Shown in pieces: positions 2,340 to 19,427 of a stretch of DNA of 64,000 nucleotides (the stretch's first letter is position 1; each line of letters begins with the position of its first letter). The notes under the pieces were generated by a model. It searched no databases, had not been told where the DNA came from, and saw only the letters and a program-made list of their open reading frames with translations. The DNA is taken from IMG/VR virus record IMGVR_UViG_3300027819_000006. One strand, written 5' to 3'. The DNA is from a virus. Taxonomy: Duplodnaviria; Caudoviricetes. The translations under genes and the position numbers were made by a program.

Positions 2340-3227
2340 TTATGCAAGAGCTAATTGTTTCATGAATATGTCGAATTCAACTTCTACAAATAACTCGTTA
2401 TGTTTGCCCATGTCTTTTATAATATAAACTTTATAGCCAGCTCTTTCTATTTCTTTTATTTTTATCTTTTCTCTACTCTGTACTTGTTCGACTGAATGTT
2501 TATCTGCTACTTTCTTATAATGCCAAATACCATTCCATAAAATTGCAGTTTTAATATCTTCTATTATTACATCTGCATCCCAACCATTAAAAATAGCTTC
2601 ATTATGCAGTACGTTTTTAAATTTTCTGCAACACAGTTCATAAAAATATATTTCATTCTTGCTTCTTCTTCTTAATCTCTGAGAATTAGCAGATTTTTTA
2701 CCAGCTTCTCTTGCTTTAGCTAAATATTCAGCAGAAGATCTTGTACATGTTTCACAGCAATATTTTTTATTTGAATCTATTCTTTTCAAAAACATTTTTT
2801 GACAATTGATGCTATTACATGTTACTTCTATTCTTTCTATTTTATGAATATTTACTATTCTGCCGCTTACATAACCTGATTTAATAGTATTTGATACTTT
2901 TTTTCGAGTTTCTTCACTGTGTGTTCGCGCATGCGAACATTTATCAGAACAGCATTTATGAGATAGAGCATTATCTCTAATTCTTATTTGAGTTTCGAAC
3001 CATTTGTTACATCTATCACATTTGTGAAAAACTTCAACCCATAAAATCTTTTTAGCTTTCGACTTTATACTTTTAGATAATTTCTGTAATGATTCTTCTG
3101 AAAACTTTCTTCCATAAAAGGGATTATTAGACCCTTTTAAATTTATTCCAGTGTTGCAGAATCTTTTGTGAGATGTTACTGCTCTTTTAGATTTAAAATA
3201 TCTATCGCATGTATCACATTTTATCAT
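2340..3227 (-). CDS. free-standing homing-type endonuclease (Zn finger, NUMOD3-like, Vsr/DUF559-like)
   Basis: CxxC..HxxxC N-terminus, GSNNPFYGRKFSEE repeat, SKNE..DADV..ILWNGIWHY C-terminus. Confidence 0.7.
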   Translation of the reverse strand: MIKCDTCDRYFKSKRAVTSHKRFCNTGINLKGSNNPFYGRKFSEESLQKLSKSIKSKAKKILWVEVFHKCDRCNKWFETQIRIRDNALSHKCCSDKCSHARTHSEETRKKVSNTIKSGYVSGRIVNIHKIERIEVTCNSINCQKMFLKRIDSNKKYCCETCTRSSAEYLAKAREAGKKSANSQRLRRRSKNEIYFYELCCRKFKNVLHNEAIFNGWDADVIIEDIKTAILWNGIWHYKKVADKHSVEQVQSREKIKIKEIERAGYKVYIIKDMGKHNELFVEVEFDIFMKQLALA

Positions 3228-3917: not shown

Positions 3918-4376
3918 TTATTCAATTGTCAAATTATTATCTAACCATTCTTCACACTGCTCTTGAGACTTTATATTACCAAGATTGTTCCTAAAATAGA
4001 ATAGTTTCACGTTCAAAATATTTTTAAATGCTTTAATTTTCAATTTAGATATAGTGACGTGTCTTCCTCTTCTAGAGCCCTTTATTTCTATCCATAGATT
4101 ACAATCTGGTATGAAAAAATCAGGAACATATTGCATCCCATCATCTGAAGTTCCATTGCTGATAGTGAATTTTTCAGCATTTTTAATCCAATAGATGTTT
4201 CTACTATTCAGTATATCTGCAAAAGCTAATTCATACAACCCATTCATTTCAAACTGTTCACCTTTTATATTTGCAAATTGTCTATTCTTTGTAAGCTCTT
4301 TTTGAGATTCATGGTTCAAATCAATCATGATATCTCCATTAATTGGTAACCATTTTATATGATTAAATATAAACAA
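3918..4376 (-). CDS. PD-(D/E)XK nuclease
   Basis: LYELAFA..YVPDFFI..WIEIKG. Confidence 0.7.
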   Translation of the reverse strand: MFIFNHIKWLPINGDIMIDLNHESQKELTKNRQFANIKGEQFEMNGLYELAFADILNSRNIYWIKNAEKFTISNGTSDDGMQYVPDFFIPDCNLWIEIKGSRRGRHVTISKLKIKAFKNILNVKLFYFRNNLGNIKSQEQCEEWLDNNLTIE

Positions 4377-5036: not shown

Positions 5037-5110
5037 TGGTGGACTGAGATGGAATCGCACATCTACCACTAGTTTTTCAAGCTAGCACTCTTCTCCTGAG
5101 TTATCAGTCC
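5037..5110 (-). tRNA. tRNA-Phe(GAA)
   Basis: TT-GAA-AA loop, GGACTGA/TCAGTCC acceptor, CCA. Confidence 0.85.
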
Positions 5111-5118
5111 CTATTTAT

Positions 5119-5142
5119 TGGTGCACTTGATAGGATTCGAAC
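5119..5142 (-). pseudogene. tRNA 3' fragment
   Basis: GTTCGAATCCTATCAAGTGCACCA only. Confidence 0.6.
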
Positions 5143-5159
5143 ATATATGAGATTTTTAT

Positions 5160-5237
5160 TGGTGGGTCTGGCAGGAATTGCACCCGCATTTTTCTCCTTA
5201 AAAGGGAGCTACAAAAGCTAATTTTTGTTACAGACCC
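5160..5237 (-). tRNA. tRNA-Lys(TTT), atypical D-arm
   Basis: CTCC-CT-TTT-AA-GGAG arm, GGGTCTG/CAGACCC acceptor, CCA. Confidence 0.75.
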
Positions 5238-5821
5238 ATTAAAATCTTTAATTCATTTATGCATTTTAAAACATTTTCTTTAACATCTTGAGCTTCAAAT
5301 CTTATAACTTTCCAACCATTTTCTATACTAAATTTATCTCTTCTTTCATCTATTAATTTAACTTTTGGTAAATTATGTGTAGACCCATCAATTTCAACAT
5401 CAATTTTTAAATCTATAAAAGCAAAATCATAACAATATATACTATGCTGATAATTGTATATCCATCCTTCAATGTTTGAATATTCTAAAGCATTTTTGAA
5501 TATTTTTTCTGGATAACTCATTTTAGAGCAATGATTTAGTTTGTATGGAACTTTTTCTGGATGTTCCATTAAATATTTTATTCGATGTAAAGATAATTTG
5601 TTTCTAGTTTCTTCAGTGTGATGTCTGCCTGTCCAATATATTCTTGCTGATTCTGATCTTTTCTTCCTCAATATTTCACTTTTATCATTATCAAGACAAA
5701 ACATTACATGAGAAGTCATTTTTTGTGGTATATCAAAACAAAATTCTTTTTTACAATGTTTGCATACATATATTTTCATTATGATCCTCCAATTATATAA
5801 TAAATATAACTGTCGAATCAT
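5228..5821 (-). CDS. DUF559/Vsr-like free-standing endonuclease
   Basis: SYPE..YDFAF..VEIDGSTH..RRD..GWKVIRF; N-terminal Zn finger; likely start at Met 5776. Confidence 0.75.
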   Translation of the reverse strand: MIRQLYLLYNWRIIMKIYVCKHCKKEFCFDIPQKMTSHVMFCLDNDKSEILRKKRSESARIYWTGRHHTEETRNKLSLHRIKYLMEHPEKVPYKLNHCSKMSYPEKIFKNALEYSNIEGWIYNYQHSIYCYDFAFIDLKIDVEIDGSTHNLPKVKLIDERRDKFSIENGWKVIRFEAQDVKENVLKCINELKILMGL

Positions 5822-5896
5822 AAAAGACTTATGTAAAAAATATTTAATAAGCTAGTTCCAGTCATGGTGTACAAGTGCTTTTAATATTCAATATTT

Positions 5897-6007
5897 TGGC
5901 TGGCATGGTGGGTACCGCCCCCACATAATCTCCGTTAATTTTACATCTCTTAGGTTTAGCCTAATTGATGGGACAGCGGAGCGCAATTGCTTGTCTGCCA
6001 CATGCCA
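5897..6007 (-). tRNA. tRNA-Asn(GTT) interrupted by 35-nt insert (5938-5972)
   Basis: TGGCATG/CATGCCA acceptor, G73, CCA; removing the insert gives CTCCG-CT-GTT-AA-CGGAG. Confidence 0.75.
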
Positions 6008-6048
6008 GTATTTAAATTAGATTGTCTGCAACAATTTTTGTATAGTTT

Positions 6049-6082
6049 AATATAAACAATCTATGATCAAATGTAAACAACT
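6049..6082 (-). promoter_or_regulatory. conserved phage promoter driving the tRNA array
   Basis: AGTTGTTTACATTTGATCATAGATTGTTTATATT = TTTACA-N17-TATATT. Confidence 0.8.
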
Positions 6083-6099
6083 ATTTTAACAAAAACAAA

Positions 6100-6293
6100 A
6101 AAGAGATAAAACTTGAATGTCTTATCTCTGTGAAAGCTGTACTGCATATAAGACATTCATTCTAAGTCACTGTAGGTCTATTTTCATGATTATAGCTTTT
6201 AAAACTATTAATAGACAAACTATCTGAACATTGCAGATAGTTATCTGATAATAAGTTATGTCTTTGCTGTATGGTCATATGATTAATCTCTTT
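6100..6293 (-). ncRNA. putative multibranched structured RNA
   Basis: 11-bp and 9-bp perfect hairpins, 8-bp closing stem, no ORF. Confidence 0.4.
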
Positions 6294-7271: not shown

Positions 7272-7559
7272 CTAAAAATCATTTGGATGTCTCAATCTGT
7301 CATCCCAGAATTCATCTACATTAGGTTTATTTGCTATATAGTTTTTGATGTTCAGCCCTACTTTTTGTAATGCTTCAAATGCATCTTGCAAAGCTTGTCC
7401 ACTTCTTAGTGTCCATAGATAGACTTCTGCTCCAGCTTCTATTTCTTTCTTAATAGCATTTATTACATCCCATTTTGGCTCACCAATAGCTAGATAGTTA
7501 CTCTGAGGATCTGTGAAAGTAGTTCCATCAAAATCCAAAGCTATATGTTTTGTCATCAA
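7272..7559 (-). CDS. small HAD-family phosphatase-like protein
   Basis: IALDFDGT motif I, LWTLRSG motif II, WDDR motif IV. Confidence 0.7.
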   Translation of the reverse strand: MMTKHIALDFDGTTFTDPQSNYLAIGEPKWDVINAIKKEIEAGAEVYLWTLRSGQALQDAFEALQKVGLNIKNYIANKPNVDEFWDDRLRHPNDF

Positions 7560-8593
7560 ACTGCCATTTCTGCTGTTAATTTAGGATGGAATTGATAATT
7601 CTCTAATTCAAAATCTGTCATCACAAAATCTTCTAATTTAGTCTGTCCTCTATCTTTTATTTTTAATTTTGATTTTGGTATTTGATATGGAATTCTCTGC
7701 AGCTGTTCTTTAACTATATCTATATGATTCAAATATATATGAGTATCTCCCCCGACAAATATTAATTCGTGCGGAACAGTATTTGTAAGTTTAGCCAATA
7801 TAGATAGTAGAAATGCATATGATGAAATATTCGAGCAGAGTCCTAAAAAACTATCCACACTCCTCTGATACCATTGCAGTGACAATTTCAATTCTGGAAT
7901 TTCTATTTTTGATAATATCTGATCTAATTTTGTTGATTCTTCAAACATTCCAGTAGAAGACTCTACATCTATTTTAAGCACTTTCATTATATCATCATAT
8001 AATACAGGACTGTTATTATTTAAATAGATTAGTTTGTCAAAATTATTCATTTTTGAACAATATAGCTGTATAAGAACATGGCATGGGGGCAATGCGCATT
8101 TATCTGAACTTACTTCTGCGGGATTCCAAGCTGTAACAAGTATTCTTCTGTCATTGGGATTTTTCTTGATTGTGTCTATAACGTTTTGAAGCTGATCTAT
8201 TTCATGTTTGTATATTTCTGTTTCTACAAAATTAGCTTCTTCTTTTTCTATAAATTCCCATTTCCGCCATTGTTTGCCATAGAGTTTGCCACAATCACCA
8301 TCATCTTCATAGTTATTTCTTTTTATATAATCTGCATAGTTTCCATCCCAGAATTTATTTTTAGCATATATTTTCTTTAGATCATTGATATTGGATGAAC
8401 CAGATATGAACCATAGTAATTCTGATAATATTGAAAGAACTGGCATTTGTCGTGTAGTAATTATTGGAAATCCTTCATATATAGAAAATCTAAGCGTAGT
8501 TCCAAAGATAGATTTAGTGTCTACACCAGTTCTGTCAGATTTAGTTTCTCCATTATCTAAAATATTTTGCAATAAGTCTAAATAGTTTCTCAA
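7556..8593 (-). CDS. thyA: thymidylate synthase
   Basis: DRTGVDT, ELLWFI, RRILVTAWNP, LPPCH, YQRSVD, NISSY, GDTHIYLNH. Confidence 0.95.
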   Translation of the reverse strand: MRNYLDLLQNILDNGETKSDRTGVDTKSIFGTTLRFSIYEGFPIITTRQMPVLSILSELLWFISGSSNINDLKKIYAKNKFWDGNYADYIKRNNYEDDGDCGKLYGKQWRKWEFIEKEEANFVETEIYKHEIDQLQNVIDTIKKNPNDRRILVTAWNPAEVSSDKCALPPCHVLIQLYCSKMNNFDKLIYLNNNSPVLYDDIMKVLKIDVESSTGMFEESTKLDQILSKIEIPELKLSLQWYQRSVDSFLGLCSNISSYAFLLSILAKLTNTVPHELIFVGGDTHIYLNHIDIVKEQLQRIPYQIPKSKLKIKDRGQTKLEDFVMTDFELENYQFHPKLTAEMAV

Positions 8594-9053: not shown

Positions 9054-9655
9054 AGAACCTCTCTAACAAATAGTGCAACTTCTATTTTTTCTCCGCATTT
9101 CATTGATAGGTCCGATAGTAATTGTTTAATAATAACTTTATCGTTTTTGATAAACTTTTGCTCTGATAGACAAACTTCTTTGAACCATTTATTCAGCTTT
9201 CCATCTACAATTTTCTGTAATAGCTCTTGTTTATCTGTTTTAAATCCTCCTTTTTCTGTCATTTCTTTCATAGTCACAATAGATAATAGATTCTGCTGAC
9301 TATTCAGCTCTCTTTCAGAAATATCTTCTTTAGAGACATACAGTGGATTTTCAGAAGCTATCTGCAGACATAGATCGTTTCCAAGAACATTAAACTCATC
9401 AGTTTTGGCCACAAAATCAGTTTGACATTTTAGTTTTAACAGAACTCCAATTTTCTTGTTAGCATGTACATATGTGAAAATTCTACCTTCAGAAGTAGTT
9501 GCATTGTTGTTTGTCAGAATCTGAATACTCTGTTCTTGCAGCCATCTGATAGCTAGTTCTATATCATTCTCTGTTTTTTCTAATGCTTCTTTACATTTTG
9601 CAACAGACACATTAGTTCTCTGTCTGAATTCTTTTATGATGTCAAGATTGTTCAT
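9050..9655 (-). CDS. tsf: translation elongation factor Ts (short form)
   Basis: IKEFRQRT..CKEAL, EGRI..YVH, LKCQTDFVAK, EVCLSEQKFIKND. Confidence 0.92.
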   Translation of the reverse strand: MNNLDIIKEFRQRTNVSVAKCKEALEKTENDIELAIRWLQEQSIQILTNNNATTSEGRIFTYVHANKKIGVLLKLKCQTDFVAKTDEFNVLGNDLCLQIASENPLYVSKEDISERELNSQQNLLSIVTMKEMTEKGGFKTDKQELLQKIVDGKLNKWFKEVCLSEQKFIKNDKVIIKQLLSDLSMKCGEKIEVALFVREVL

Positions 9656-10716
9656 TTTAGTCCTGCTTGTTTATTCAAATATTTCATGAACCAAATTCTA
9701 GCTGCTGTGCTAGCATCTCTTGTCATATCTTTTGGCTCTAAATTATTTGACTGTAATGTGTCCATTTCCTCTTTAATAATATCATTTACAACCCATTTTA
9801 GAAATGCACCAGTTCCTTTTACGTCTGGCTCAAGTGAATTTTGAGTAAAAACATATTCTATACCCTGTAAAAGTCTAGAATCTGTCACAGTATATGCAAT
9901 AAATTCATTAATAGAATTCATCTTTTCTGTATCTACTTCAGCAAGCTTTTTAACTTTAGAAGAAGAATGTTTCATCCCTTTACTTTTAAATGTAATTCTT
10001 CCAGTTTTGTTACTGTAGTTGCAAAAAACGATTCCTTCTCCTATTCCCTCTTTGCCAAAATATTTACCTACAGGACAGCAAGCTTCTACTTCTTCTGTCA
10101 TTTTCACAATTTCATTCTGCGATCTTTCAGGATAGTTAAAATCAATATCTATTGAATATGTTTTAAATTGATGAACATTATAAATTCTATTTTCATTGCT
10201 ATGAATATTTTTATATTGATCATCTGTTAGCCAATAAGCAAATACAGACTCTTCTTCTATAGCACTCATTGGAGTAATTTTAACTCCAAAAATTAAAAAC
10301 ATTTTTTCAAGTCCAGATATTGCTACTCCACCCTGAATGTTAGACCCTGCCCACTCTCCATAGATTGTAATAATGTCATCTTGTAAACTTTTAGTATCTT
10401 CATCTATTTGTTTGAACAATTTTAAAAAAACATCTTCATTAGATTTTACAAAAAATGCAAATCCAGCATTGTCATGTTCTACAGATACATTATGATTTCT
10501 TGCCTGTGCCCATATTTCTGTACCGTCGAAGGATACAGCTGCATGTGTCCCGTGAATTTTGCAAGTTCCAGTAAATGTAAGAGTTGGCAGCATTACAGAT
10601 GGATCATAGATCGCATCTCCATTTTCATCCTTACCTTTATATCTATAAGATAGCTGCACTCCTTTAATTACATTTCTGAACTGCTCAATTTCAGGAAATT
10701 TAATGAATTTTTTCAT
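9652..10716 (-). CDS. RNA ligase, Rnl2-like nucleotidyltransferase
   Basis: TCKIHGTHA (motif I), IYGEWAG, FLIFGV, GEGIVF, TFKSKG. Confidence 0.85.
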   Translation of the reverse strand: MKKFIKFPEIEQFRNVIKGVQLSYRYKGKDENGDAIYDPSVMLPTLTFTGTCKIHGTHAAVSFDGTEIWAQARNHNVSVEHDNAGFAFFVKSNEDVFLKLFKQIDEDTKSLQDDIITIYGEWAGSNIQGGVAISGLEKMFLIFGVKITPMSAIEEESVFAYWLTDDQYKNIHSNENRIYNVHQFKTYSIDIDFNYPERSQNEIVKMTEEVEACCPVGKYFGKEGIGEGIVFCNYSNKTGRITFKSKGMKHSSSKVKKLAEVDTEKMNSINEFIAYTVTDSRLLQGIEYVFTQNSLEPDVKGTGAFLKWVVNDIIKEEMDTLQSNNLEPKDMTRDASTAARIWFMKYLNKQAGLK

Positions 10717-18721: not shown

Positions 18722-19427
18722 TCGATTAAATCCTCTTTTGGAATTTTAACTCCATACACTTTGCCAATACCGAATAAATTGCAACAATATAGACCATTTG
18801 GCTGAGAAGTGATTTCATCTAAAGAATTAACAGCAAGAGTCTTCTTAATATCTGGTCCATAATGAACAGGATATGTTCTATTAGAATGTTTTAGTTTAAA
18901 CTTTTTCATCTTCAGATTCCTCCTCGCCTACAAATAGATTATCATTTTTAAAAATGTGCAACTGATAAGAATCTGTATTTTTTGAAAATAGCTTTGACCA
19001 CATGCTTTTCTTAGCTATGACTGCAACATATTCTTTGTCTAATTTTAATCTCAATTCCTCAGTAATATGTTCATCGCAAGCAAGACGTAATAAAACAGCA
19101 GATTTCACTTTGTTAAATTCTTCTTGCATTTGCTCTAAATCTAATGACCATATACTAGGCATACTAAATCTCCTTAGATGACTCATGTTTAGATGTTAGA
19201 TCTTCATCTGGAATTTCAATGTTGAAAACCATTCTGTCTGATCTGTGCAGAGTGAATAGATTTGTATTTTCTTTGAGTAATACATCTTTTCTGTTAAGTT
19301 CAATTTGTCCCACAATAGACTTATTTTTATAGTTTCTATTCTTAACATCATAACCAGAAACATGATAGAAATTATATGTCTTAGATTCTTTAACTCTGTG
19401 AATGGTTCCAGTGATGTAGTAGCTCAT
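18712..19427 (-). CDS. three small hypothetical proteins (18712-18909, 18896-19186, 19164-19427)
   Basis: overlapping coupled ORFs behind promoter. Confidence 0.55.

Follow-up and report, generated by a model that had tools for sequence, protein, structure and literature searches.

The window analysed here, a stretch of 64,000 nt, belongs to a T4-like phage from groundwater that has a genome of 271,885 bp and a GC content of roughly 25-30%. It carries an array of 17 tRNA genes, all on the minus strand, which ends at window position 7 where it adjoins gp32. The gene at the head of this array is a tRNA-Asn gene that is interrupted inside its anticodon (Table 1). Read along the minus strand, the locus comprises a terminator-like hairpin, a promoter, the tRNA-Asn gene, a stub of an older tRNA, the gene for a DUF559 nuclease and then the rest of the array. 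The promoter sequence, TTTACA-17-TATATT at 6077-6049, lies just after the hairpin and 42 nt upstream of the tRNA-Asn gene. It is part of a motif that is present in five near-identical copies in the window, the other four of which precede protein genes, and contigs of the source runs match this stretch at several places. The claim made in the initial annotation, that this is the first tRNA behind a conserved promoter, is therefore borne out. The AT-rich spacers on the 5' and 3' sides of the gene resemble those of the neighbouring tRNA genes, most of which also encode CCA. The 218-aa protein of the upstream operon has no homologue among 5.8 billion proteins, and no related locus was found for it.

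Table 1. Features of the tRNA-Asn locus and interrupted tRNA genes in arrays of ligase-bearing phages (positions are those of the window or, where a locus is named, of that locus)
Feature	Position	Strand	Description
ATP-dependent RNA ligase gene	9652..10716	-	PF09414; phrog_548; 3.6 kb upstream of the tRNA-Asn gene, same strand
218-aa ORF	6337-6993		Gene of the upstream operon closed by the hairpin at 6102..6129
Terminator-like hairpin	6102..6129	-	11-pair stem followed by the T-run TTTTTTGTTTT; closes the upstream operon
Conserved phage promoter motif	6036..6090	-	About 50 nt, with TTTACA-17-TATATT
tRNA-Asn, 5' exon	5973..6007	-	tRNA positions 1-35: acceptor 5' strand, D arm, anticodon-stem 5' strand, C32 U33 G34 (U35)
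tRNA-Asn, insert	5938..5972	-	35 nt, inside the anticodon
tRNA-Asn, 3' exon	5897..5937	-	First part: U36 A37 A38, anticodon-stem 3' strand, variable loop; second part: T arm, acceptor 3' strand, G73, CCA
Acceptor stem			TGGCATG/CATGCCA; 7 Watson-Crick pairs
D stem			GCAG/TTGC; 3 Watson-Crick pairs and 1 G-U; U8 before the stem
Anticodon stem			CTCCG/CGGAG; encloses 42 nt instead of 7
T stem			GTGGG/CCCAC; 5 bp; variable loop of 5 nt, ATTAT
DUF559 (Vsr-like) nuclease gene	5228..5821	-	Immediately downstream of the tRNA-Asn gene
Endonuclease-like gene	3918-4376		Nuclease-like, in the tRNA array
NUMOD3 gene	2340-3227		Nuclease-like, in the tRNA array
Interrupted tRNA-Lys(UUU)	L241 1201-1307		31-nt hairpin at 34/35; Rfam 62 bits; only Lys in the arrays of that contig
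Interrupted CAU-anticodon tRNA (Met/Ile)	L254 4019-4129		37 nt at 34/35 or 35/36; Rfam 57.6 bits
Interrupted tRNA-Gly(UCC)	L110 6082-6187		Assigned by identity elements (G1 C2 G3, U73); 30 nt at 36/37
Interrupted tRNA-Pro(GGG)	L169 4108-4233		52-54-nt AT-rich insert near positions 31-33

Several further features of the array were noted. Two tRNA stubs (5119-5146 and 5843-5878) derive from an older tRNA with the canonical T loop TTCGAAT, and flank the DUF559 nuclease gene together with an odd-looped tRNA-Lys. The second of these, read as 5878-5843, is a 5' tRNA fragment that directly follows the tRNA-Asn gene. The arrangement suggests that tRNAs borne on such cassettes are recoded versions of the genes that they replace. 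In the tRNA-Lys itself (5160-5237), the D stem is 6 bp long and the T loop reads TGCAATT. A tRNA-Phe (GAA) with the T loop TGCGATT is encoded at 5037-5110 on the minus strand; it is missed by ARAGORN at default settings and scores 42.7 bits with Rfam. Between the promoter and the tRNA-Asn gene, a 12-nt piece of the D arm (5991-6002) recurs with one mismatch at 6022-6033, 31 nt upstream. This repeat may be a relic of rearrangement, or may be due to chance (rough expectation 0.05-0.1).

The tRNA-Asn gene, as read from the sequence, is a GC-rich cloverleaf of 111 nt (6007-5897). Its stems of 7, 4, 5 and 5 bp follow the standard spacing, and all 21 pairs form (20 Watson-Crick and one G-U). The 100-nt bin over the element has a GC content of 50%, compared with 19-33% in the clear bins on either side. 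At its ends the gene has U1-A72, G73 and an encoded CCA. In silico removal of the insert yields a 7-nt loop, CTGTTAA, with U33, the anticodon GUU and A37; the exact junction could be either 34/35 or 35/36, one base apart. The Asn identity set, G73 and the rejoined anticodon, is thus present, and U1-A72 is typical of bacterial and phage tRNA-Asn. The spliced 76-mer is called tRNA-Asn(GTT) by ARAGORN at the default threshold.

This anatomy confirms what the initial annotation had proposed, a tRNA-Asn(GTT) gene interrupted by a 35-nt hairpin, and assigns it to the minus strand; the deletion of 5938-5972 restores a canonical loop, as had been claimed. The same annotation described the acceptor, D and T arms as intact. 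This holds for the acceptor and for the D and T stems, but the D and T loops depart from the canonical form. In the D loop, ACAAGCAA, the GG (G18 G19) is missing, the T loop, GGCGGTA, lacks T54, T55 and A58, and the only elbow features retained are G53-C61, C56 and R57. Some of these departures are shared within the array, as the D-loop GG is also absent in 8 of the 13 other tRNAs read from it, and G55 also occurs in its tRNA-Lys and tRNA-Phe. GGCGGTA is the most deviant T loop of the array. A coding role for the element was rejected, the only ORFs over it on either strand being at most 37 aa long with GTG or TTG starts.

The insert folds as CATC-AA-TTAGG-CTAAA-CCTAA-GA-GATG (5970-5944) in both the minimum-free-energy and the centroid structure. 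The hairpin consists of a 4-bp CATC/GATG helix, a 2x2 internal loop (AA/GA), a 5-bp TTAGG/CCTAA helix and a 5-nt CTAAA loop. Both junctions fall within a single 6x9 internal loop, which is bounded by the anticodon stem on one side and by the helix of the insert on the other. The ribozyme core of a self-splicing intron needs roughly 200 nt or more. A group I or group II intron or a small ribozyme was rejected on the length of the insert, 35 nt, and on the lack of any matching Rfam family at E<=1; at E<=10 the insert is touched only by a partial overlap with sR24, at chance level (11 bits compared with a gathering score of 36). Judged from its length and its predicted fold, the insert cannot splice itself.

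Other known forms of insert do not fit either. A bulge-helix-bulge intron was rejected, as the arm does not have two 3-nt bulges and a 4-bp helix, and CUGU is unable to pair with AAAU. The insert is a simple hairpin of 4 and 5 bp without a T-arm motif, and not a tRNA-like element of 79-114 nt as in the introns of Lak megaphages. The geometry of an RNase III-like cut was discarded for this gene, the arm not being duplex at the junctions and showing no stagger. The insert was also considered as a repeated mobile element and rejected, with just one copy in the window; no further copies were found across the 64 kb, and a search of IMG/VR with the insert stem pattern returned no matches.

Automated detection of the gene depends on the settings used. 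ARAGORN at default misses it, whether or not introns are allowed. From -ps90 onwards, the program in intron mode reports tRNA-Asn(gtt) with an intron (36,35), so that the ARAGORN check suggested in the initial annotation does return the interrupted tRNA-Asn, though only at this relaxed threshold. At -ps90 there is one other intron call in the 64 kb, which has a GC content of 22%, lies within an ORF and fails after splicing. Further relaxation (-ps85) gives many false intron calls inside ORFs of AT-rich DNA, and a relaxed call is therefore not evidence by itself. The Rfam tRNA model RF00005 does not match the gene even at E<=10, and the folding z-score of the element is just -1.6.

The silence of default ARAGORN and of Rfam and the modest z-score are what could be expected of a chance resemblance, or of part of a promoter or leader rather than an RNA gene. 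We nevertheless consider such an origin extremely improbable. A strict cloverleaf scan, which allows no mismatch in any stem and an insert of 0-60 nt, recovered on the tRNA strand five ordinary tRNAs and, as the sole insert-bearing match, the tRNA-Asn element. The same scan gave 2 matches in 3.84 Mb of shuffled sequence (30 shuffled windows), or about 0.07 per window before the CCA is required, and none in uniform random sequence. Default ARAGORN accepts the spliced form, the gene shares about 75% identity with genuine tRNA-Asn genes of phages, and the conserved promoter motif stops at 6036, well upstream of the element. Chance resemblance is ruled out for practical purposes.

The exons have clear counterparts in other phages. 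The rejoined 17-nt anticodon arm CTCCGCTGTTAACGGAG was found in 69 IMG/VR contigs, and 62 of the sites are uninterrupted tRNA-Asn genes according to ARAGORN. These correspond to 43 distinct sequences; T is the first base in 40 of them, and G73 and CCA are found in most. The closest tRNA-Asn match in IMG/VR is identical to the spliced candidate at 59 of 76 positions. U1-A72, G73 and the loop CTGTTAA recur in the tRNA-Asn genes of phages with a related RNA ligase. On these sequence comparisons, the two exons are the two halves of a phage tRNA-Asn.

The insert, in contrast to the arm that it interrupts, appears to be specific to the phage lineage, because no phage in IMG/VR shows this arm split by 25-50 nt: the pattern CTCCGCTGT-N25-50-TAACGGAG gave 35 matches there, all of them chance occurrences in coding DNA. 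Close relatives were not detected by blastn against phage records, and the exact T-arm/acceptor pattern has no relative in IMG/VR or in GTDB genomes. In four groundwater DNA runs, every sequence matching the locus was a fragment of this same phage, and none lacked the insert; a search for RNA runs containing the locus returned none. The other assemblies that carry the phage are identical at this locus. The 17-gene array, the 64-kb window and the next 10 kb of the 271,885-bp genome contain no second tRNA-Asn.

An insert confined to one lineage is possibly young, as would be expected if the gene were a recently disabled tRNA-Asn pseudogene, in which a working gene was hit by a 35-bp insertion, for instance the scar of a repair event or residual mobile DNA, while homing nucleases were reshaping the array; any RNA still made would be functionless. 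The deviant T loop is compatible with this history, and so are the older tRNA stubs beside nuclease cassettes in the array, including the one directly behind the gene, and the D-arm repeat with its hint of rearrangement. It is difficult, however, to see a decaying gene in a GC island within an AT-rich genome that has no mismatch in 21 stem pairs, or a repair scar in a clean 9-bp hairpin placed exactly so that its removal restores the universal tRNA-Asn loop. The gene is also the sole tRNA-Asn seen, and is the first behind a strong conserved promoter. Finally, other phages have fully canonical tRNAs of this design, as described below. We therefore regard a pseudogene as unlikely.

Related phages were collected through the RNA ligase that is encoded near the array. 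tRNA arrays were scanned in about 100 loci and 15 large contigs of these ligase-bearing phages, which together hold roughly 250-300 tRNA genes, and four fully canonical tRNAs interrupted in the anticodon loop were identified among them (Table 1). As the ligase served to find these phages, its presence alongside interrupted tRNAs says nothing about a link between the two. In L241, L254 and L110, the inserts are anticodon-loop hairpins of 30-37 nt, mostly at 34/35, in arrays of large T4-like phages, as here. The tRNA-Asn gene has the same design as these three genes, namely an otherwise complete tRNA, within a phage array, whose anticodon is interrupted midway by a hairpin of 20-40 nt. The tRNA bodies of L241 and L254 are fully canonical (Rfam scores of 57-62 bits), whereas the D and T loops of the tRNA-Asn gene are deviant. 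The canonical bodies of the interrupted tRNAs point to selection for tRNA function, and hence to removal of the inserts.

The insert sequences of L241, L254 and L110 are otherwise unrelated to the present one; the exception is the CATCAA directly 5' of the hairpin in L241, which the present insert shares and which, having been spotted post hoc, may be chance. A CAT(C/T) near the 5' end of four inserts was likewise noted only post hoc and is given no weight. The pattern of the L241 tRNA-Lys was found in IMG/VR only in the contig of L241 itself and in chance matches.

The anticodon arm of the L110 tRNA-Gly forms an almost continuous 19-bp rod, in which the splice sites are staggered by 2 bp and would leave a 2-nt 3' overhang. 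This stagger corresponds to the cut geometry of RNase III, and the resulting ends could be joined directly by an ATP-dependent ligase.

The arrays of ligase-bearing phages also contain over-long tRNA-like genes (L163:5725-5849, L049:17751-17879 and 18771-18904, and L167:3884-3969). One of them is a tRNA of 122 nt that scores 43.8 bits, and the middle parts of the others were not parsed. In the first 86 related loci, 17 of the 105 tRNAs called by ARAGORN, leaving aside Leu, Ser and Tyr, are 80-91 nt long (including L049:1087-1176 and L058:1037-1126). Two such tRNAs were inspected; both are tRNA-Asn with the extra length in the variable region, which in one of them is a clean 5-bp hairpin.

T4 RNA ligase reseals anticodon loops that have been cut by host nucleases. 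The ATP-dependent RNA ligase encoded upstream of the array is the most plausible candidate for an enzyme that could seal the tRNA-Asn halves. Its nearest homologues are 44-54% identical, relatives of the gene adjoin tRNA arrays in L038 and L049, and a metallophosphoesterase gene lies near it. A phmmer comparison of the ligase with solved structures gave no match. As for a cutting enzyme, neither an EndA nor an RNase III family is among the best 25 of 39 Pfam families (55 ORFs), and the Pfam families listed for 73 of the window's ORFs include no EndA/TSEN member.

Some observations on the genes around the ligase and its homologues are recorded here. The ligase homologue at L038:10004-11824 is apparently split into two ORFs (211 and 206 aa) separated by about 560 nt, which could be an intron or an inserted element. 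In the window, the Pfam model for thymidylate synthase matches its gene (7556-8593, minus strand) in two stretches, suggesting an insertion within the gene. The ORF at 7272-7559 (minus strand) has no Pfam match; its best PHROG is annotated 'phosphoheptose isomerase', and these searches do not support a role in end healing.

We propose that the locus is transcribed as a precursor of tRNA-Asn(GUU), and that the 35-nt hairpin dividing its anticodon is a mini-intron spliced by proteins, a reading to which we give slightly less than even confidence. Transcription would proceed from the conserved promoter about 35-40 nt upstream, and the ends of the transcript would be trimmed like those of the other tRNAs of the array, with their AT-rich spacers and encoded CCA. 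An endoribonuclease of the host or the phage would excise the hairpin, which is predicted to sit in the internal loop atop the anticodon stem, while the acceptor, D and anticodon stems would hold the halves together. An ATP-dependent RNA ligase, most likely the phage's own 3.6 kb upstream, would then rejoin the halves into a 76-nt tRNA-Asn. At the DNA level, by analogy with collaborative homing, the insert may also break up a conserved tRNA-gene sequence that the homing nucleases of the array could target, and the recoded T loop might perhaps have the same cause, evasion of homing nucleases.

The initial annotation had considered a short protein-spliced intron, a pre-tRNA that cleavage and ligation would activate, or a decoy. 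Common ground for these three readings now is that the gene is genuinely derived from a tRNA-Asn and that its insert is not self-splicing. The intron reading has gained at the level of the class from L110, L241 and L254, and also from the finding that this is the sole tRNA-Asn seen. It is partly supported by the canonical tRNAs with comparable hairpin inserts in related phages; the single instance, taken alone, is weakly supported.

The decoy is one form of another alternative, in which the transcript stays unspliced and acts as a stable, non-decoding tRNA-like RNA with a long anticodon arm, whether as a decoy or sponge for anticodon nucleases or further defences directed at tRNAs, or as a small RNA akin to rnaC and rnaD. 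The T4 tRNA cluster does produce these two long stable RNAs, of which rnaC has a canonical T arm, and the non-canonical elbow of the present gene suggests relaxed constraints for use on the ribosome. In addition, phage tRNAs are known to evolve anticodon-loop changes that evade host tRNA nucleases (PMC10264068). An RNA of this kind would not be expected, however, to keep in its exons what AsnRS and decoding require (G73, U1-A72, C32 U33 GUU A37 A38), and the bodies of the interrupted tRNAs in related phages are perfectly canonical. We consider this alternative improbable.

If the protein-spliced reading applies beyond this gene, phages would own a protein-dependent form of tRNA splicing, in which hairpins at 34/35 are excised by an endoribonuclease of host or phage, the phage ligase joins the exons and the inserts shield conserved tRNA-gene DNA from homing nucleases. 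The present gene would then be one member of the class, with a T loop that was recoded as well. This more general proposal is possible, though doubtful. To our knowledge, textbooks recognise only self-splicing tRNA introns in bacteria and viruses, and treat protein-catalysed tRNA splicing as archaeal and eukaryal. Should a working tRNA-Asn be made from this gene, a cut-and-seal pathway would have to operate in a bacterial system, since a 35-nt insert cannot self-splice. Phage RNA ligases would then gain a routine biosynthetic job besides repair of the damage done by host anticodon nucleases. The case also ties the architecture of tRNA genes to the arms race with homing nucleases in phage tRNA arrays. 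It enlarges a class seen repeatedly in several phage lineages by an Asn member, whose recoded T loop is unusual.

Among published systems, the only precedent found is that of the tRNA introns of Lak megaphages, which the background given in the initial annotation had omitted (PMC6784885). These 'enigmatic' introns have no Rfam match and their mechanism is unknown (Devoto et al. 2019, PMC6784885). The inserts shown in Table S6 of that study are 79-114 nt long and tRNA-like with T-arm motifs, and their position according to tRNAscan in eukaryote mode is directly behind the anticodon (PMC6784885). Both cases concern a short anticodon-loop insert in a phage tRNA that is too small for a group I or group II intron and is Rfam-negative. 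The present insert differs from the Lak introns in being a simple 35-nt hairpin that lies within the anticodon (at 34/35 or 35/36), and in belonging to an unrelated T4-like groundwater phage.

The tRNA introns of archaea and eukaryotes are marked by a bulge-helix-bulge and are removed by EndA/TSEN together with RtcB or Trl1. The present insert resembles them as a short intron of the anticodon loop that would need an endonuclease and a ligase. It lacks a bulge-helix-bulge, however, and is not at position 37/38, and the nearby ligase is of the ATP-dependent type, which joins a 3'-OH to a 5'-phosphate, and not RtcB.

The group I intron of tRNA-Leu(UAA) also lies at 34/35. With group I tRNA introns the present gene shares the anticodon-loop site and the association with homing nucleases whose recognition site is the anticodon region of the tRNA gene, but its insert of 35 nt has no room for a ribozyme core and no Rfam intron match. 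Group I introns in the anticodon loops of bacterial and phage tRNAs, some of them with homing endonucleases, have been reviewed (PMC3984707).

A further comparison is with the break and repair of anticodon loops in T4 infection, where PrrC makes the cut, and Pnkp and Rnl1 repair it. Nothing is excised from the tRNA in T4, and the ligase here belongs to PF09414 and not to the Rnl1 family. The likeness lies in a phage ligase that reseals, or in the present case would reseal, a cut loop, and in the make-up of the T4 tRNA cluster, which contains the segB homing nuclease together with rnaC and rnaD.
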